DNA of 64,000 nucleotides, from sequence record LR597647. One strand, written 5' to 3'. The notes beneath the pieces are model-generated. The model had not been told where the DNA came from, searched no databases, and saw only the letters and a program-made list of their open reading frames with translations. How positions within the stretch are numbered: the first letter of the stretch is position 1; each line of letters opens with the position of its first letter. This document shows, in pieces, positions 15,871 to 33,571 of the stretch. Position numbers and translations under genes: made by a program. The stretch is from Escherichia phage rV5_ev147.

Positions 15871-15900
15871 TTGACAAAGCTTTGTTGAGTTGGTTATAAT
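15871..15900 (+). promoter_or_regulatory. sigma70-like promoter (TTGACA-18-TATAAT)
   Basis: consensus hexamers. Confidence 0.55.
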
Positions 15901-15929: not shown

Positions 15930-16043
15930 ATGGCTAAAAAAGCCTTGAAGAAGGCGTACAAGAAAGAGATTGCGCTTGAGCTTAAGAAAAAACACAAGCG
16001 TGAAAAGAAACATCATGAAGATGAAGAGGGGGTGCAACAGTGA
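15930..16043 (+). CDS. 37-aa highly basic peptide
   Basis: strong RBS agaggaggt; Lys-rich; stop overlaps GTG start of next ORF. Confidence 0.35.
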   Translation: MAKKALKKAYKKEIALELKKKHKREKKHHEDEEGVQQ

Positions 16044-16390
16044 CACAAGAACGTATCGATTTGGCTAATAAGTTTGTAGATCTCATTTTGCCACGGTTAG
16101 TTACTCAACATGCAGATGCTATTTCTACTAATCTTGATGGCTTACGCCTAATGCTGAATCGCACAGATGACCCTCGTATTCGGGCTGATTTAGAAGCCTC
16201 TGCCAACAAACTGGAAAAGTTCTTGCAAGTAGACACGCAAGAAGCCTTGCACAAGATTATGGTGGAAGGTTTCTCTAAAGAATTTACCATTAAAGAGCTT
16301 AAGGAGCTGATCCACCAAGAAGAGATGAATATCCGAGTTCAGGCTGTTGCAAGCAGCATGGAAGCGGCTATTGAAAAACTGTTGCAGTAA
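16040..16390 (+). CDS. hypothetical protein
   Basis: ORF. Confidence 0.4.
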   Translation: MTQERIDLANKFVDLILPRLVTQHADAISTNLDGLRLMLNRTDDPRIRADLEASANKLEKFLQVDTQEALHKIMVEGFSKEFTIKELKELIHQEEMNIRVQAVASSMEAAIEKLLQ

Positions 16391-16428
16391 AAGTACTTGG
16401 CACATCTCAATCTGAAAGGAGTCCCAAC

Positions 16429-17217
16429 ATGGGTCGAGCTAAAGAAACAAAACGCATGCGTGATGAAGCTAGAGAGGCTCGCAAATCTGATCGCCTGCGT
16501 AAGGCTGCTGAGAAATTTGCTGACGAAAGAGAGCACACCGCTCCAGCTCTCCGACCAATGAATAAGAAGCAGCAAAAGTATCTTGATTATCTAGGGTCAC
16601 GTAAGATTATTATTGTAAACGGTGTGTTTGGATCCGGTAAGACATTCATGGCATCTGCATATGCAGGTGATCTTCTGCGTAAGAACGAGATTGATAAGAT
16701 TATTGTTGCACGTCCTTACGTTCAGACAGGAAAGACTTCAGGATTTAAACCTGGAAATGCAATGCAGAAACTGTGGCCCTATCTTCGAAGCATGATGGAC
16801 ACGATTTGTCGTCGTGTTGGCAAAGGTGCTTTTGCCGCAATGCTGGGAGACGGTCAGAACAGCCGTATCGAGATTTGTGAAGTTGAAAGCATTCGTGGTC
16901 GTAGTTTCGATGAGCGATGCTTTGTCCTGATTGACGAGGCACAGCAAACTAACCCTGAAGAAATGTTGTCAATTATCACAAGGATCTCTGATCAAGCCAC
17001 CCTTGTAATTATGGGTGATAATAGCCAACGTGACATCCCTGGTAAATCTGGCCTTGCATGGGTGACGGATTTCTTTACTCGTCATCCAGATCCTGAGGTT
17101 GGAATGATCAGCTTTGATAGTCCAGACGATGTCGTTCGTTCTGGGTTGGGTCGTCAGATCGCACTCAATCTTATTGAGGATCGTGCAAATCATATTTGGA
17201 CCCCTGTTTCCGAGTAA
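16429..17217 (+). CDS. phoH: PhoH-like ATPase
   Basis: Walker A GVFGSGKTF and PhoH-like IIVARPYVQTGK...GFKPG. Confidence 0.75.
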   Translation: MGRAKETKRMRDEAREARKSDRLRKAAEKFADEREHTAPALRPMNKKQQKYLDYLGSRKIIIVNGVFGSGKTFMASAYAGDLLRKNEIDKIIVARPYVQTGKTSGFKPGNAMQKLWPYLRSMMDTICRRVGKGAFAAMLGDGQNSRIEICEVESIRGRSFDERCFVLIDEAQQTNPEEMLSIITRISDQATLVIMGDNSQRDIPGKSGLAWVTDFFTRHPDPEVGMISFDSPDDVVRSGLGRQIALNLIEDRANHIWTPVSE

Positions 17218-17261
17218 TACAGAAGGGTGGTTATTCCACCCTTAAATATCTAAAACAGTTG

Positions 17262-17290
17262 TTGACAAATAGGTAAGCTTTAGATATTAT
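17262..17290 (+). promoter_or_regulatory. sigma70-like promoter (TTGACA-17-TATTAT)
   Basis: consensus hexamers; preceded by hairpin GGGTGG-ttatt-CCACCC. Confidence 0.55.
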
Positions 17291-17318
17291 TATCGGACAA
17301 AACAGAGAGAAGGACAGT

Positions 17319-17630
17319 ATGGCTACAATACAAGAGAAACTGAATAAAATATACTGCCTGTTTGTCTATAACGGCGAGACAATTTTGGCAAATAAGGGAT
17401 CCAAGAATGTGTGGACCAAGGACAGCGGTGGTAATATAATTAACTTAGCGTTGCTACGTGAGCGCCGACACAGATTCTTTATCGAGTCTCGAATTATTGA
17501 AAGCAGCACTTGCTACAGAACAGGCGATAAAGTAATTGTTGACAATGATACGTGGTATGTGGTAGACTGGCAATCATCGAGTTGTGATGCTTCTGACAAT
17601 CGTAAGTATTCCATAGTGATTGCTAAATAA
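17319..17630 (+). CDS. hypothetical protein
   Basis: ORF downstream of promoter. Confidence 0.45.
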   Translation: MATIQEKLNKIYCLFVYNGETILANKGSKNVWTKDSGGNIINLALLRERRHRFFIESRIIESSTCYRTGDKVIVDNDTWYVVDWQSSSCDASDNRKYSIVIAK

Positions 17631-17690
17631 AGGTAAATGTGAATCAGGTTTAAATAAATAGCTTTCAACTTCCAATATTAAGGATTTCTC

Positions 17691-18740
17691 ATGAATTTAA
17701 CACCTCGCAGAACCATGGTACACGGCATGAAAGAAAAACAGAACGGTTTCGAACCTATGAGTAATAAAATGTTTGGTATGCCGGGCGGTATCATGGAAAC
17801 ATACAGCTACCCAACACCTGTTGTTGACCACGTTCTTTATATCGACGATTTGGAAGACTTACAAGATCATATGTCTCGTCTGCAGACGATCCGTATGGCT
17901 CAGCCGGAAGAAAGCATTCGGGTGATCATCAATAGCCCTGGGGGTTGCGTGCACATTGCAATGGCTTATCTGCAGGCATTCCGAGAGTCTCAGGCAAGCG
18001 TTGTTGCACATGCTGAAGGGATGTGCTGCTCTGCTGGAACAATCTTATGGCTTGGTTGTAAAGAACGTACTGTGGCTCCGGACACAGAGTTTATGTTCCA
18101 CTACTATCAAGGTGGCACTTATGGTAACGGTGTGAACATGAATACTCAGGTCAGCTACTGGAAAAAACGTTTTGAACGCCTGATCGAAAAATACTACGGT
18201 GGGGTGCTGACAGAAGATGAGATCGCATCCATCACAGCTGGTGGCGAAGTGTGGTTGGACGGAGAAGAGCTGGCAGCACGCACTGGAGCTATTATTCTGG
18301 ATGAAGGCAACATACAACGCATCCAGAACGGACAAAAACCGAAAAAGCTTCTGGCAAAAGGTGATGAAGAAGGCGTGTTAGGTGAAGCAGGTCTTCCGGA
18401 GATTCACCAGTGCACATCTTTAGATGAGTTAGTTCATGCTGTTGAATCTGCAAAAGCGGGTGGTTCGAAAGGTGATGTTCACACTGTGTTCCTGAATCTG
18501 CAGATGGAAAGTGGCGAGACCGTCAGAATTGCCCTGAGTGAGATTACTTCAGAAGATCTGCAGAGATTCTCTGTCGTTGAACTTCAGGATATTCTGTCTC
18601 AATTGAAGACTACTCTGAACGGCGGTGAAGAGGTTAAGGTGAAAGATAAGACTCGCAAGCGTCTGGTGGACAATATTATTAAAACAGCAAAAGAGCTCAA
18701 TGAAAAAATCCTGGGTGCAGGAATTGTCGAAGAAGCTTAA
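17691..18740 (+). CDS. ClpP-like serine peptidase with C-terminal extension
   Basis: INSPGG and GMCCSAG motifs resembling ClpP/S49; 349 aa. Confidence 0.55.
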   Translation: MNLTPRRTMVHGMKEKQNGFEPMSNKMFGMPGGIMETYSYPTPVVDHVLYIDDLEDLQDHMSRLQTIRMAQPEESIRVIINSPGGCVHIAMAYLQAFRESQASVVAHAEGMCCSAGTILWLGCKERTVAPDTEFMFHYYQGGTYGNGVNMNTQVSYWKKRFERLIEKYYGGVLTEDEIASITAGGEVWLDGEELAARTGAIILDEGNIQRIQNGQKPKKLLAKGDEEGVLGEAGLPEIHQCTSLDELVHAVESAKAGGSKGDVHTVFLNLQMESGETVRIALSEITSEDLQRFSVVELQDILSQLKTTLNGGEEVKVKDKTRKRLVDNIIKTAKELNEKILGAGIVEEA

Positions 18741-18752
18741 ACATTAATTCTA

Positions 18753-18777
18753 AAGCCCTCTTCGGAGGGCTTTTATG
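18753..18777 (+). terminator. rho-independent terminator
   Basis: AAGCCCTC-ttcg-GAGGGCTT followed by TTTAT. Confidence 0.6.
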
Positions 18778-18791
18778 ATCTGGAGATTTGC

Positions 18792-19325
18792 ATGACTTGT
18801 GCTAGAAAACCTGATGAACAACGTAACGCCTACGATGAGTATGTGACACCGGAGTGGTGTGCAGAAGGGCTGTATGACCTTATTCCGTTCCCAGAAGACT
18901 GGACCTACTTAGAGCCTTGCAGGAATAGTGCCTCAGGTGTGTTCTACTCCCGTATGCCGTTAGGATCTGCATGGGGAGAAATACAAGAAGGTGTTGACTA
19001 TCTGAATACAGAATACAACCATGTTGACTGTATTATCACCAACCCACCATACAGCCTGGCTCGTGAGTTTGTAGACAAGGCGTTGAAAGATGCTGACGTA
19101 GTTATTATGCTTTTGCGTCTTAATTTTCTGGAAAGCAAAGCCAGATTTGAATGGTGGCTTGATAATGCACCTACTACTGTGATCACAATATCTAAGCGTC
19201 CATCATTTCAATCAAACGGCAGAACTGACGGGCAAGCATATGCATATTTTGTGTGGGATAAGAAAAACCGTTTAGACTTGCCGCCGTTTATGTGGTTGGC
19301 ACCCCCAGAGGTAGACCTGAAATGA
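18792..19325 (+). CDS. phage Dam-type DNA N6-adenine methyltransferase
   Basis: CIITNPPYS catalytic motif, about 170 aa. Confidence 0.75.
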   Translation: MTCARKPDEQRNAYDEYVTPEWCAEGLYDLIPFPEDWTYLEPCRNSASGVFYSRMPLGSAWGEIQEGVDYLNTEYNHVDCIITNPPYSLAREFVDKALKDADVVIMLLRLNFLESKARFEWWLDNAPTTVITISKRPSFQSNGRTDGQAYAYFVWDKKNRLDLPPFMWLAPPEVDLK

Positions 19326-19606
19326 AAATGAGTGCTAAGGACAAATTACACCAGCTAGCGCTAAAACGCCCTGTAACGCTCCCTGACGAGCTTAACTCCA
19401 TTTATGATGCGATTGTAGGGGAGATACAAAATAAAGCGTTAGCAGGCTTTCTGGGGTGCGGATTTTCGATAAATCTACCCTCGCATCTCTCAGATTACTT
19501 CCCGCACATTGTTGGAGATTTAAGGGCAGGAGGTCTGCAGGTAGATGTTGTTGGCATCTCCCCAGAGAAAAATAATACGGTTGCCTACTTGACAGTAACC
19601 TGGTAG
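19322..19606 (+). CDS. hypothetical protein
   Basis: ATGA overlap with upstream stop. Confidence 0.4.
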   Translation: MKMSAKDKLHQLALKRPVTLPDELNSIYDAIVGEIQNKALAGFLGCGFSINLPSHLSDYFPHIVGDLRAGGLQVDVVGISPEKNNTVAYLTVTW

Positions 19607-19642
19607 TTGTGTATTGTTGTTTTCAACAAGAGGGGGTCATTT

Positions 19643-19882
19643 ATGTACAAGTCATTTTCAATCTACTCAAGACAGGCGAAACACTGCACAGAGATCCTGA
19701 TCACTCAGAAAAAATCTGTGGAAGGTGAGTGGGAATATCACCATAAAATGTTGCGTCCAGACTGGGTTTTTGATAGACTTATTGCTATGATCCCTCTCGG
19801 AGAAGTATACCCTCTGACAGCCCATCGCGATGCTTGGGATTTAATTGATTACATAGATTCATTTAAGGAGCCTAGATTATGA
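19643..19882 (+). CDS. hypothetical protein
   Basis: RBS agggggt before ATG 19643; promoter-like TTGACA 19589. Confidence 0.4.
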   Translation: MYKSFSIYSRQAKHCTEILITQKKSVEGEWEYHHKMLRPDWVFDRLIAMIPLGEVYPLTAHRDAWDLIDYIDSFKEPRL

Positions 19883-20277
19883 AGATTGAGATTACTAAAG
19901 AAGGTAAGAAAGTGTCCGGCAACTATGCAACAGTAATTCGGGATTTAATGTTTGAAGCCACCAAGATCGGTACATCTAAAGTTGGTCAAACTGTTAGTGT
20001 GAAAAGTAATATCTCCACAGGAGAGAAGGTATTCATTGTGGTCAAAGGGCAGGATCCCGTGGAAGGAACAGTGGGCCGAGGTGGCTACCTGTGCATTTCT
20101 GAAGAGCCGCGTATGTTAGTGGCTGACGCTACTATGGGTGGGAAACGTGTGTGCGAGGCGGATGAGGTAATGATTATCCAACCTGTTGATCCAGATGACC
20201 CAGCAACTTGGGTGGTAGGAAATGAAATCTTCTCTTTAGAAGAGTTATCCTTCCCAGCACCGCGCTCTGTTCAGTAA
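19879..20277 (+). CDS. hypothetical protein (possible distant member of small-protein family 1)
   Basis: MKIEIT N-terminus. Confidence 0.4.
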   Translation: MKIEITKEGKKVSGNYATVIRDLMFEATKIGTSKVGQTVSVKSNISTGEKVFIVVKGQDPVEGTVGRGGYLCISEEPRMLVADATMGGKRVCEADEVMIIQPVDPDDPATWVVGNEIFSLEELSFPAPRSVQ

Positions 20278-22270: not shown

Positions 22271-22618
22271 ATGCCAAAGATTAAAACGTTATTACTGTGG
22301 GTAGCTGTTTTAGCTTTTATAGGGTACTGGACTTGGGAAACTGAATTAAAAGATATCGGATATACCAGTCTTGAGAGCAAGGCGTGCATTGGCATAACCG
22401 ATGCGTTCAGGCAAAATGCTATGGATCACGAATGTGTTGATGCAGATATAGATGAGAAACTGTCTAAGGACAAAGATTTTTACCATGGGCATGCTTTACT
22501 TGATAGTGGTGACACTGTAGAGTTCTGGTCGTGGTTTCGTGAAGATGGAACAATAAAAACAGCAGTAAAGATCTCTAACAAAGAGTTAATGCTGTTGCAG
22601 CAAAAGGAGGCTCAATGA
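22271..22618 (+). CDS. hypothetical protein with N-terminal TM/signal segment
   Basis: RBS agaggtagagag; TLLLWVAVLAFIGYWTW. Confidence 0.45.
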   Translation: MPKIKTLLLWVAVLAFIGYWTWETELKDIGYTSLESKACIGITDAFRQNAMDHECVDADIDEKLSKDKDFYHGHALLDSGDTVEFWSWFREDGTIKTAVKISNKELMLLQQKEAQ

Positions 22619-30406: not shown

Positions 30407-30615
30407 TCAACACACATGCATCTGAAGAGACATCCGAAGGAGTGACCATCTGTCCCTTGGCCGAGCCGGGGAAAGAGGAAAACTTCGATTCTGAAGATTC
30501 TCCATCTCCGTCCCAGGTAGACCCTGAGGCTGATGACCTGACGTGGGAGGACATCGTAGACATCTGGTTCTCTATTATGCCTGAGCACGAAGAGTTCAGA
30601 GGTGGTAGACTATGA
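30403..30615 (+). CDS. hypothetical acidic protein
   Basis: ORF collinear with plus-strand arm. Confidence 0.4.
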   Translation: MINTHASEETSEGVTICPLAEPGKEENFDSEDSPSPSQVDPEADDLTWEDIVDIWFSIMPEHEEFRGGRL

Positions 30616-30736
30616 AGCACCGAGCCCACACCGGTTCCTCATGCTAAAGCATGGCCTGAAGAGGCAAACGTGTATAATTCCTGTGCATTAGAACGTATAA
30701 AACCCTGTTCACACTTTCATTCCCAGAGGAGATTTT

Positions 30737-30952
30737 ATGAAGATAGAGATATTTGGTGGAGCTGACAACACTCGTGGCCTGATTTACCTTGAATTCGATG
30801 AATCATACCTGCCAGAGGTGTTAAATATAGACTCTGTTGCTGAGGCTTTGGGAGTAAACCCTAAAGAACTCCACTCTTGTGCTGAGATCGATGGTTGGGA
30901 AGAGACCATGAACATTGATTTCAGTGAAGTAGAGGATGAACCGCTGGACTGA
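30737..30952 (+). CDS. small acidic protein (family 1-like)
   Basis: RBS agaggag; MKIEIFGG, acidic C-terminus. Confidence 0.45.
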   Translation: MKIEIFGGADNTRGLIYLEFDESYLPEVLNIDSVAEALGVNPKELHSCAEIDGWEETMNIDFSEVEDEPLD

Positions 30953-32423
30953 CACACAATTAGCTGCCCGGCTAAAGTGCTGGAAGCACCTATAACACAT
31001 CTTTCAACTAAATTTCCTACCACCACAATCACTTACCTCCCACACATGACTGTTTGCTTGTTTAGTGAGCAGTCATGCCTTGACATTCTTGCCTATCCTG
31101 ATAAAATTAAGTTCTTCTCTTTTCTTTTACCGAGTAATTCGGGTTTTCTGTTCTCTTCGGTTTGAAGGGGTATAGAGATACACCTGAGTGAACAGGGTGA
31201 ACAACCGAACCATTAGCTATGGCATTAGCATGGCGAAGCGGACGGGTGACGAAAGAGGGGCCGGAGGACACCAGTCACTGCCATATGATATATGGGTGAT
31301 AACCTGAAGAGTCTGAATAAGTGTTTAAGTACCAGTCAGAGGAAAAGGTGAATGGTAGCCGAAGGGGGGGAGGGGGGTTTCTTGTATCTTTAATTTGTAT
31401 ATTATGTATACACTTGTAAACCAATCTAATCTGAATCTGTTTACCACACAAAGCGGATAGAGACAAATATTGCCTATTAAACTTGAATTATTTATAGAAA
31501 ATACCACAACACCCCTTAAGTCTTTGATTTTACACACAAATCCTACAGATATTCAACCTCCATATTTAACATACTTGTAACATATTCCATACTCTACCTG
31601 TCTGATCAATTTCCCCAACTACATTCTCATATTTTCCCTGTCTGTACTACCCCTGCCCCGCCGGGAGTCCCGTCATATCTGGCTTTCCAGCAAATATCAC
31701 ACCCACAAATATCATTGCCTGAAGAGGGTTTCATCCCATAATACCTGCCTTACCTGAAGAGCGCTTCATACACCACGTAAATTTTTTAATTGACCTCCCC
31801 CTGCCCCGCCGGAGAGGTTGGCTTTTCCCACACAGACCTGAAGAGTCAGCCAGAAATATCTGAATAGGCCCAATTCTACCACGATTTTGACCTGACCTAC
31901 AGGGAGGCCCGAAGGGTCTAGCTTTCAGCTAGAGTCCTTGCAGGACCTACAGGAGCGCTGCCAGGCGGACGGAATGGGAATACTTCTCATTCTTATAACA
32001 ATTCTCAAATATCGAGGCAGTGAGAGAAATTAATAGGCCAGGCCGTTCACACAGTGGCACAACATTTGCAACCTATTTTGTGTGGATGAATGAGAATACC
32101 TATCATTGTGAGAACTGTTATCATTACGGGCAATTTAACATAATACCCATTATGCGCACCACTGGCGATACATACAAGGATTGATAACATGAGTTACAGT
32201 TTACGCATATAACAATCATATTTCTTACTATTTGTGTGGGATATAGTTAGCAGCCAATAGATTAGATATTGACCTGCGGACTTCCAACCGTCTAGACGTC
32301 TAAACGCCCACACAACAAGGATTATACATACATTACTGAATGTAAACAGGACCGCAAAAATGCTACCATACCAGTTTGTAAATTTTTCATGCAGCACTTG
32401 ACAAAGAGGAGGAAAACTTGTCT

Positions 32424-32475
32424 GACATAATGGTGACATAACTGACACGATTGACATAATTGACATGCCTGACTG
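32424..32475. repeat. iteron array: 5-6 direct copies of TGACA(T/C) at 9-11 bp spacing
   Basis: copies at 32424, 32435, 32444, 32452, 32461, 32470. Confidence 0.5.
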
Positions 32476-32520
32476 TTCACGCTCTCATTATTCCCGCCCT
32501 TACTATTCACGCCCTTTACT

Positions 32521-32610
32521 GCTTACATTCTTGATAGTCTACATGCTTAATGGTTTACATGACTAATAGTTTACATAGCTAACTGTTTACGCATAAACTG
32601 TTTACACAGA
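32521..32610. repeat. iteron array: about 6 copies of (G)TTTAC(A/G) at 15-16 bp spacing
   Basis: copies near 32523, 32540, 32555, 32570, 32586, 32601. Confidence 0.5.
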
Positions 32611-32618
32611 TATGATAA

Positions 32619-32910
32619 GCCATGCCATTCGTTTGCATGATAACAATAACGATCAACAACAATAAAGACTGAAATGATAACGTTGTTGATTTGACTGACT
32701 AACAATTAACAGGCTAATAATCTATGACATAATATAAAAGCAGGGCAACTATTAGCAGATCTATAGTTGCCTTGCTTGTTATGTCATGATTAACTAAATA
32801 CAAGGCAACTATGATCTGATTAATAGTTTGCAGACAAACTATCACGGGGGTGATGGTTACTGCTTTTATATTATGTCGCGACTCCGTCGCGCCATGCCAT
32901 TCGTTTGCAT
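32619..32910. repeat. 252-bp palindrome-rich segment flanked by perfect 20-bp direct repeats GCCATGCCATTCGTTTGCAT
   Basis: DR at 32619-32638 and 32891-32910; nested inverted repeats inside. Confidence 0.5.
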
Positions 32911-33571
32911 AGTTGCCTTATTGTTACAGATAAAATAATTGTATTGTTAATTATTTCTTATCTTTCTATTAGTCATCTAATGATTCCAGTTAGTATAGTA
33001 ACGTACAGTAAACATTAGACGACTAAAGATTTCTCTGATTATGATAACTTGCCGTGACAATTTCAGACTGTTTACGAAAAATGTTGACACCTGAGCTGAT
33101 TTATGTTATGCAATTTAAACGAATAATTATTTTATGCAGGTATTGACTATTCTGTTATTCTATGGTCGGAATAAATACTTAGCAGGCTATAGAATGGTGA
33201 GCGTACGTAAATTCTGAGATCTGTCGGCTATAGTTATACTCGATTTTTCACGTAGAACACGCTTTTTGGTTTGTGTAAGTGTATGACTTATAAAGATTTT
33301 TAGTTGTTGACAAGATATTGAAGATGTGCATCAGGTTAAATTTTGTGCAATAGCTGCATTACGTGCAATTTTGGAAGGAAAACGGGTAAAAATAGCACCG
33401 CTACCACACAATGAAAGGTTATGCAATAGTTATTTTACATGTATATTTGTACAGTGTGTGGGATTGATGGCTCGTCAATTATTCCACTTGCCAGGTAGGG
33501 CCGTTTATGGTAGGGAGGAAGAGCAGACAAAAAGAAAGGGACCTAAGCCCCTTGATAATTCAGTTAAAAAA

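Follow-up and report, generated by a model that had tools for sequence, protein, structure and literature searches.

What is a ClpP-like serine protease doing among the nucleotide-metabolism genes of a large lytic phage, far from the genes that build the head? The question is raised by gp122 (rV5 gene numbering) of Escherichia phage rV5_ev147, whose gene lies within the 64,000-nucleotide (nt) stretch of record LR597647 analyzed here; this whole stretch is called the window, and positions are given in its numbering unless another record is named. The present analysis suggests that gp122 is probably a nonstructural, middle-phase, phage-lineage-specific peptidase with the ClpP fold, one that is predicted to be catalytically active, lacks canonical docking of ClpX/ClpA, and carries an acidic recruitment module. 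The existence and general nature of gp122 are already known: it has been annotated since 2013, when Table S3 of the rV5 genome paper listed it as “ClpP (ATP-dependent) protease subunit” of 349 amino acids (aa) (Kropinski et al. 2013, PMC3606486), and its family has been catalogued. The curated annotation of BASEL phage AlexBoehm names the counterpart “ClpP-like protease,” and such curated annotations already imply that gp122 and the prohead protease are separate. In the literature searched, we found no experimental characterization of any member of the families concerned, PHROG 5410 and PHROG 1827, which appear there only in gene lists.

The open reading frame (ORF) starts with ATG, preceded 8 nt upstream by the Shine–Dalgarno sequence AAGGA. 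The match to the profile of PHROG 5410 (“ATP-dependent protease”) is full-length (E = 2e-155, 517.8 bits; residues 24–345 on profile positions 4–322 of 323), and the C-terminal extension is thus a family-wide trait. Pfam PF00574 (CLP_protease, clan ClpP/crotonase) matches residues 59–168 at 47.7 bits against a gathering cutoff of 20.2 (E = 2.1e-12), and in a PDB sequence search the 60 best of 110 matches are all ClpP (best E = 7e-8). In an AlphaFold2 monomer model, built on 21 family members reaching down to 41% identity, the core of residues 45–215 superimposes on solved ClpPs with a Foldseek probability of 1.0 (E ~4e-9; target-normalised template-modelling scores of 0.53–0.70, mostly 0.6–0.7). 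An earlier reading made from the sequence alone (the sequence-only reading) had described a ClpP/S49-like core on the strength of the motifs INSPGG (residues 80–85, window 17928–17945) and GMCCSAG (residues 110–116, window 18018–18038). The ClpP half of that description is borne out by the Pfam score, by Foldseek, and by both motifs. The S49 half is not: no Pfam Peptidase_S49 match appears at E <= 0.1, TIGR00706 (SppA_dom) gives 14.4 bits against a cutoff of 155, and gp122 retains the invariant ClpP-type His, unlike the Ser–Lys dyad of S49 enzymes such as SppA and lambda gpC.

Several observations bear on whether gp122 could instead be the prohead protease. The window corresponds to the final ~64 kb of LR694165.1, from the Vequintavirus Escherichia phage rV5_ev156, and the interval 16000–20000, to which the base-level check was confined, is 100% identical to positions 88384–92384 of that record. 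The ORF coordinates of the two agree to about 40.1 kb, and from about 41.6 kb they differ by 1 nt; the window and the end of the record are therefore not identical base for base throughout. As the sequence-only reading had it, the gene is far from structural genes within the window: none is annotated in LR694165.1 across window positions 1–50000, and synteny with AlexBoehm identifies the large minus-strand ORFs at 48–64 kb as DNA polymerase, primase/helicase, helicase, and rIIB. The head module lies outside the window, 33 kb from the gp122 gene, in the order portal–protease–scaffold–decoration–major capsid protein. Its protease is of the S78_2 (XkdF) type, scores 62 bits with Pfam Peptidase_S78_2 against a cutoff of 24, and has an AlexBoehm orthologue scoring 65 bits; the same architecture recurs in AlexBoehm, TIETA, ICP1 (genes gp122–126 of that phage), and Barba (gp096–099). 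The capsid maturation protease that adjoins structural genes beyond the window is therefore a protein other than gp122. PHROG 1530, to which this head protease belongs, is itself named “DNA methyltransferase,” yet its C-terminal part is an XkdF/Peptidase_S78_2 prohead protease; the misnomer has propagated, and the TIETA head-module protease is deposited as “DNA methyltransferase.”

The wider distribution of the gene points the same way. We sampled 12 lineages manually: Vequintavirus, Seunavirus, Certrevirus, Mohonavirus ICP1, a Pakpunavirus-like phage, Otagovirus, Barbavirus, two Demerecviridae genera, a T4-like 253-kb vibriophage, an N4-like Nahantvirus, and an Acinetobacter phage. The ClpP-like gene lies outside the portal–major capsid protein block in all 12, T4-like and T5-like phages included, and its neighbors are nucleotide-metabolism, replication, or lysis genes. 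Virion proteomics adds that gp122 is absent from the 19 proteins detected by mass spectrometry in rV5 particles (PMC3606486). The virion proteins listed for the related phage W70, where a gp122 homologue is unconfirmed, include an S78_2-type protease (phrog_1530) and no member of phrog_5410 (PMC11370258).

Transcriptional organization likewise separates gp122 from head assembly. The genes for gp121 and gp122 form a two-gene cassette inside the nucleotide-metabolism unit, bounded by promoter P121, predicted for rV5, and terminator t122, listed in rV5 Table S4 (PMC3606486); the terminator sequence has a single exact match in the window and none in 100 shuffles. The authors of the rV5 genome paper assign genes 82–163, which cover nucleotide metabolism and gp122, to a transcription unit separate from late genes 27–81, and the eight late promoters predicted for rV5 are all found among the morphogenesis genes (PMC3606486). 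RNA sequencing of ICP1 showed that the gp176–gp211 subset, which contains the gp122 homologue, peaks at 12 min and that the capsid operon gp122–126, in which gp125 is the predicted protease, follows late, at 16 min (PMC7567579). Judged by this ICP1 homologue, GP211 (326 aa, 36% identical to gp122 in the protease domain), gp122 would be expressed in the middle phase. Two further promoter observations concern the same region. The rV5 “late promoter” motif TGGTAAAATA occurs at 16 sites in the window with at most one mismatch, against 6.7 expected, and none of 100 shuffles reaches 16; one such copy stands at 17429–17438 within gp121, 262 nt upstream of the gp122 start. This excess in a non-late window may simply reflect extended −10 elements. 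In addition, a perfect 12/12 σ70 consensus, TTGACA-18-TATAAT, lies at 15871–15900 just downstream of nrdG; it equals the published rV5 P118 except for one spacer base and would drive gp118–gp119–PhoH.

Among the alternatives, the one that survives best casts gp122 as a morphogenetic protease, a second head or virion maturation or scaffold-processing enzyme whose C-terminal module would target capsid or scaffold in the manner of lambda C/Nu3. Profile comparisons favor it, since the nearest named hidden Markov model relatives of gp122 outside its own PHROGs are ClpP-related head-maturation proteases: NCBIfam NF045542 (Clp_rel_HeadMat, 60.3 bits), NF045540 (52 bits), and PHROGs 1684 (E = 8e-22), 94, 2976, and 133, with ClpP models at no more than 39 bits. 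All scores against head-protease models nonetheless fall far below the curated cutoffs, which for NF045542 is 120 bits. The long C-terminal extension on a flexible linker also looks like those of prohead proteases, which serve for targeting or as scaffold. For the sequence-only reading this extension had argued against a prohead role, an argument that is weak by itself, since bona fide ClpP/S49-type prohead proteases carry C-terminal extensions too (lambda C/Nu3). For a Nu3-like nested start, the linker and C-terminal region offer only GTG229, GTG266, and ATG272 in frame, none with a convincing Shine–Dalgarno sequence. Absence from virions is weak evidence, because prohead proteases usually digest themselves, leave the head, and are often missing from mature particles. 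Moreover, gp122 co-occurs with a lambda-E-type major capsid protein and an S78_2 head module in Vequintavirinae, ICP1, and the Pakpunavirus-like phage. Finally, rV5 gp133, encoded about 11 genes downstream of gp122 by numbering, is among the predominant virion proteins by mass spectrometry (PMC3606486); it maps approximately to window ~22271–22618. Gene location alone hence does not exclude virion association. Against a morphogenetic role stand the dedicated S78_2 protease in the canonical head slot, which is itself found in W70 virions, the σ70-type promoter and nucleotide-metabolism neighbors of gp122, the expression peak of the ICP1 homologue ahead of the capsid operon, and the occurrence of homologues in T4-like and T5-like phages in replication and nucleotide contexts, so that the gene goes with more than one type of head. 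We regard a morphogenetic gp122 as unlikely. The sequence-only reading thus holds in its main point: with a separate S78_2 protease in a head module 33 kb away, a promoter and terminator of its own, and its absence from the 19 rV5 virion proteins detected, the conclusion that gp122 is not the capsid-maturation protease is well supported, if indirectly.

If gp122 is not a head protease, it might still be a true ClpP substitute, a tetradecamer that, by docking host ClpX/ClpA or by joining with host ClpP, redirects host AAA+ unfoldases to substrates of the phage's choosing. The above-threshold Pfam match, the PDB hits, the invariant Ser and His, and a fold that includes the handle helix as in ClpP all speak for such a protein. 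However, gp122 does not score as a canonical ClpP. NCBIfam ClpP equivalogs and subfamilies score 21–39 bits against cutoffs of 228–361 (TIGR00493, 33.2 versus 308.6; PRK00277, 38.2 versus 249; PRK12553, 39.2 versus 228). In ClpP, the acyldepsipeptide (ADEP) and the IGF/LGF loops of ClpX/ClpA bind a hydrophobic pocket that includes Y60, Y62, F82, I90, M92, F112, L114, L48, and F49 (bioRxiv 10.1101/2023.03.01.530711, PMC11866002). Alignment with the E. coli ClpP reference, identical in sequence to PDB 3mt6, shows that in the phage family Y60 has become R77, Y62 I/V79, F82 E99, I90 H107, M92 E109, F112 T127, and L114 A/S129, and that the L48/F49 segment is deleted. Every one of the seven mapped pocket residues is thus replaced, in five cases by a charged or polar residue that does not vary within the family, and the substitutions are similarly polar in the ICP1 and TIETA homologues. 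The N-terminal 44 residues, predicted to be disordered, show no similarity to the ClpP axial loops in alignments. With the hydrophobic pocket replaced and the axial N-terminal loops not conserved, canonical docking of gp122 to host ClpX/ClpA is unlikely, and the “ATP-dependent” label is consequently unsupported. The position of the catalytic Asp171 of ClpP, moreover, holds Gln in most members. Taken together, these features make a ClpP substitute distinctly improbable.

The preferred reading, an active peptidase, draws on the catalytic residues. Predicted nucleophile Ser114 and His137 are invariant in all 21 family members and persist in the ICP1 and TIETA homologues at 25–36% identity, and the INSPGG oxyanion loop (oxyanion Gly85) and the CSAGT nucleophile elbow are invariant across the 21 members, down to 41% identity. 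Invariance of this kind is what selection on catalysis leaves behind and speaks for an active serine peptidase, and gp122 is predicted to be catalytically competent. The third member of its triad is uncertain. MAFFT, run globally and on the domain only, mis-threads the C-terminal 40 residues of ClpP; D171 was mapped by HMMER local alignment, and L189 is left unmapped. The equivalent of Asp171 is Gln in 17 of the 21 members and Glu in the remaining four, among them gp122 (Glu186). Asp190, two residues past a conserved Trp, is kept in 20 of 21 and could substitute as the third triad residue; the ICP1 homologue keeps the canonical Asp. A gp122 without catalytic activity, whose ClpP fold serves as a structural, adaptor, or decoy subunit that, for instance, poisons or titrates host Clp components or forms a chaperone-like cage, would fit the loss of the canonical third residue and the strongly remodelled surface and docking pocket, but it is extremely improbable given the persistence of the Ser, the His, the oxyanion loop, and the nucleophile elbow at such distances.

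The remaining part of the preferred reading concerns the C terminus. The sequence-only reading had put the extension at about 150 aa, which is roughly right though slightly generous: 134 aa lie beyond the core (residues 216–349), made up of a disordered linker of ~46 aa and a folded module of ~88 aa. Within the module F293, E297, and R322 are invariant in the family, and its isoelectric point is 5.0 in gp122 and 4.1–4.6 in 16 of 21 members. A profile search of 1.84 billion representatives with the module returned six matches, namely family members, two fragments, and one leucine-rich-repeat protein; the last matched through its repeat pattern and was judged spurious. A BFVD search returned one significant match, to a protein of 303 aa, a length in keeping with membership of the family. 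On these searches the acidic ~88-aa module is unique to the gp122 family. An assignment to the SAP, HeH, or Rho-N helix-extended-helix motifs was rejected, as the combination of a significant profile or fold match with a basic nucleic-acid-binding surface was not found. No homology is detectable between the C-terminal extensions of ICP1 GP211 and rV5 (hhalign probability 0.2%).

Collectively, these features suggest a model in which gp122 would act in the cytoplasm of the infected cell in the middle phase, that of DNA metabolism. The retained handle helix of the model is consistent with a self-compartmentalising oligomer, which host ClpX/ClpA would not dock in the canonical mode. As substrates it might take host proteins or early phage proteins, or it might serve the turnover of protein in bulk; the proteolysis of regulatory targets of host or phage that the sequence-only reading proposed is conjectural. 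The acidic C-terminal module, on its flexible linker, may recruit substrate or partner by protein–protein contact, and the function of gp122 might be coupled to the adjacent PhoH-like ATPase.

The last suggestion comes from the neighborhood. In seven of the 12 sampled lineages a same-strand PhoH gene lies 0–4 small genes upstream of the ClpP-like gene; in rV5 numbering this is gp120, a P-loop ATPase gene one gene upstream of gp122. Pfam PhoH identifies the partner in Seunavirus (158 bits), Certrevirus CR3 (201 bits), Barbavirus (166 bits), where the two genes directly adjoin, and Otagovirus psageK4 (155 bits), where their ORFs overlap by 8 nt; in ICP1 (GP208...GP211) and Acinetobacter phage MD-2021a (psiH) the arrangement is taken from annotation only. 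RefSeq labels in the psageK4 record (Pseudomonas phage, NC_073681.1) are displaced by one gene: the name “PhoH-like protein” stands on gp050, a DUF7375 protein; “putative Clp protease” stands on gp049, which is PhoH; and “putative serine protease” stands on gp048, the ClpP-like protein. In TIETA, the Pakpunavirus-like phage, DUF7375 is likewise encoded directly 5′ of the ClpP-like gene, and PhoH is missing there. Downstream of gp122 lies a DNA N6-adenine methyltransferase-like gene, and a methyltransferase gene is also found 3′ of the protease gene in Barbavirus (Dam methylase) and Certrevirus CR3. The small upstream protein gp121 appears from sequence comparison to be conserved within Vequintavirinae; over 63 aa it is 27% identical (pairwise E = 3e-5) to the product of the ORF that immediately precedes the protease gene in Seunavirus. 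PADLOC defence models match neither gp122 nor gp121.

The recurrent pairing may indicate functional coupling, and we found no comment on it in the literature searched. Phage PhoH is a widely used viral marker gene whose exact function is undetermined (PMC6715854). One extension of the model is that a PhoH-like ATPase and a ClpP-like peptidase constitute a previously unrecognised two-component phage module, which we rate as rather improbable. Such a module could be an ATP-dependent protease in which PhoH takes the place of an AAA+ partner of the ClpX/ClpA type, or else a machine that couples the turnover of RNA and protein in the DNA-metabolism phase; in the Vequintavirinae form, the acidic C-terminal module might then serve as a docking or substrate-recruitment element. 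Behind it stand the loss of the canonical unfoldase-docking pocket, the PhoH gene upstream in seven of 12 divergent lineages, whose protease domains are only 25–36% identical to that of gp122, and the overlap of the two Otagovirus ORFs.

Four considerations, besides the head-maturation relatives and the limited weight of virion absence discussed above, count against the reading preferred here. The canonical catalytic Asp is not conserved, and the activity of gp122 is assumed. Its timing is borrowed from a homologue with the modest protease-domain identity given above for ICP1. The PhoH linkage is absent in five of the 12 lineages, namely the Pakpunavirus-like phage, both T5-like genera, the T4-like vibriophage, and the N4-like phage. 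Finally, the pairing may partly reflect inherited synteny.

Table 1. Positions of gp122, its parts, its neighbors, and the head-module genes (window numbering unless LR694165.1 is named; pLDDT, predicted local distance difference test)
Feature	Coordinates	Strand	Basis
gp122 coding sequence, ClpP-like serine protease, 349 aa, PHROG 5410	17691..18740	+	ORF, Pfam, PHROG profile, rV5 Table S3
Residues 1–44, variable and predicted disordered; FG..PG and YSYP motifs conserved	17691..17822	+	pLDDT 42–46, alignments
Predicted ClpP-fold catalytic core, residues 45–215, including handle helix 150–169	17823..18335	+	pLDDT ~90, Foldseek
Predicted catalytic Ser114 codon (in GMCCSAG)	18030..18032	+	Aligned to E. 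coli ClpP Ser97
Predicted catalytic His137 codon (in MFHYYQGG)	18099..18101	+	Aligned to E. coli ClpP His122
Glu186 codon, position of ClpP catalytic Asp171	18246..18248	+	HMMER local alignment ERDFWL/GGEVWL
Linker, residues 216–261, variable in length and sequence, largely disordered	18336..18473	+	Alignment; pLDDT 48–52 (residues 221–240)
C-terminal module, residues 262–343, predicted β-hairpin and three helices, acidic	18474..18719	+	pLDDT 81–93, alignment
σ70-type promoter-like site TTGACA-17-TATTAT (rV5 P121)	17262..17290	+	11/12 consensus; same core as published P121
Rho-independent terminator GCCCTCTTCGGAGGGCTTTTAT (rV5 t122)	18755..18776	+	GC-rich hairpin and T-tract
PhoH-like P-loop ATPase gene (rV5 gp120)	16429..17217	+	Pfam PhoH 160.9 bits
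gp121, small ORF, 103 aa, PHROG 5456, first gene of the cassette	17319..17630	+	ORF, PHROG
DNA N6-adenine methyltransferase-like gene (rV5 gp123)	18792..19325	+	PHROG 799, E = 8e-67
Terminase	LR694165.1 58409–59956	−	Record annotation
Portal	LR694165.1 56750–58306	−	Record annotation
“Peptidase,” S78_2/XkdF-type prohead protease, 134 aa, phrog_1530	LR694165.1 56263–56667	−	Pfam Peptidase_S78_2
Major capsid protein	LR694165.1 53820–54827	−	Record annotation; scaffold-like and decoration protein genes also in the head module

Some deposited records of this region call for care. In LR694165.1, product names between 88424 and 91124 (window 16040–18740) are displaced by one coding sequence: “PhoH-like protein” is placed on a 116-aa ORF at window 16040–16390 and “ClpP ATP-dependent protease subunit” on the 103-aa ORF at 17319–17630, and the real PhoH and ClpP-like coding sequences are each called “hypothetical protein.” The interval 16000–20000 is covered to at least 80% by 113 phage records, nearly all at >90% identity. 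Nineteen records named “Campylobacter phage” (MG0656xx; 17 with host Campylobacter jejuni) are 98.8–99.9% identical to the Vequintavirus region, which suggests that they are mislabelled or contaminant assemblies and not true Campylobacter phages.

Elsewhere in the window, the stretch at ~30600–33500, the “non-coding” box of the rV5 map, is poor in ORFs (none >90 aa), with GC content down to 0.34 at 32.2–33.4 kb; here the sign of the GC skew flips and gene orientation passes from the plus to the minus strand. Iterated repeats are dense in it: three copies of ACWGTTTACGCATA, a direct repeat of 20 nt, perfect, at 32619 and 32891, direct and inverted copies of the AAGCAGGGCAACTAT type, and a perfect 18-nt inverted repeat at 32726/32860. 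Rfam, run over the whole window, gave no match, this stretch included. By its sequence features the stretch looks origin-like or iteron-like.

The family of gp122 has matches in 945 phage records and is a common nonstructural protease of large lytic phages, so that one functional study of a gp122-type protease would annotate many genomes. The name “ATP-dependent Clp protease proteolytic subunit,” which is in wide use, probably misleads, as the surface for docking ClpX/ClpA has not been conserved. In addition, the pairing with the ClpP-like gene gives a concrete, testable handle on the function of phage PhoH.

Set beside known systems, gp122 shares with cellular ClpP (MEROPS S14; PF00574; TIGR00493) the fold, the INSPGG oxyanion loop, the Ser–His pair, and the handle helix. 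It differs from it in being only ~20% identical, in the Glu/Gln at the Asp171 position, in the unconserved docking pocket and axial loops, and in its extra 44-aa N-terminal and 134-aa C-terminal regions. With the ClpP-related and S49-type head-maturation proteases (NF045542, NF045540; PHROGs 1684, 94, and 133; lambda gpC/Nu3) it has in common the plan of a core followed by a C-terminal extension; unlike them, gp122 is encoded outside the head module behind an early/middle-type promoter, keeps the His, and does not match Peptidase_S49. The S78_2 (XkdF) protease of the same phage, in contrast, belongs to an unrelated fold family and is encoded between portal and scaffold in the late morphogenesis unit. 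The gene in the window is 100% identical to deposited rV5-like copies, and nothing sets it apart from other Vequintavirus copies. The closest parallels are the relatives within PHROG 5410 and PHROG 1827, which comprise rV5 gp122, Vibrio phage ICP1 GP211, and homologues in Pakpunavirus, Otagovirus, Barbavirus, and Demerecviridae. Compared with the short PHROG 1827 forms (~180–230 aa), gp122 adds the linker and the acidic C-terminal module, and with its relatives as a whole it shares a nonstructural, nucleotide-metabolism context and a frequent PhoH neighbor.

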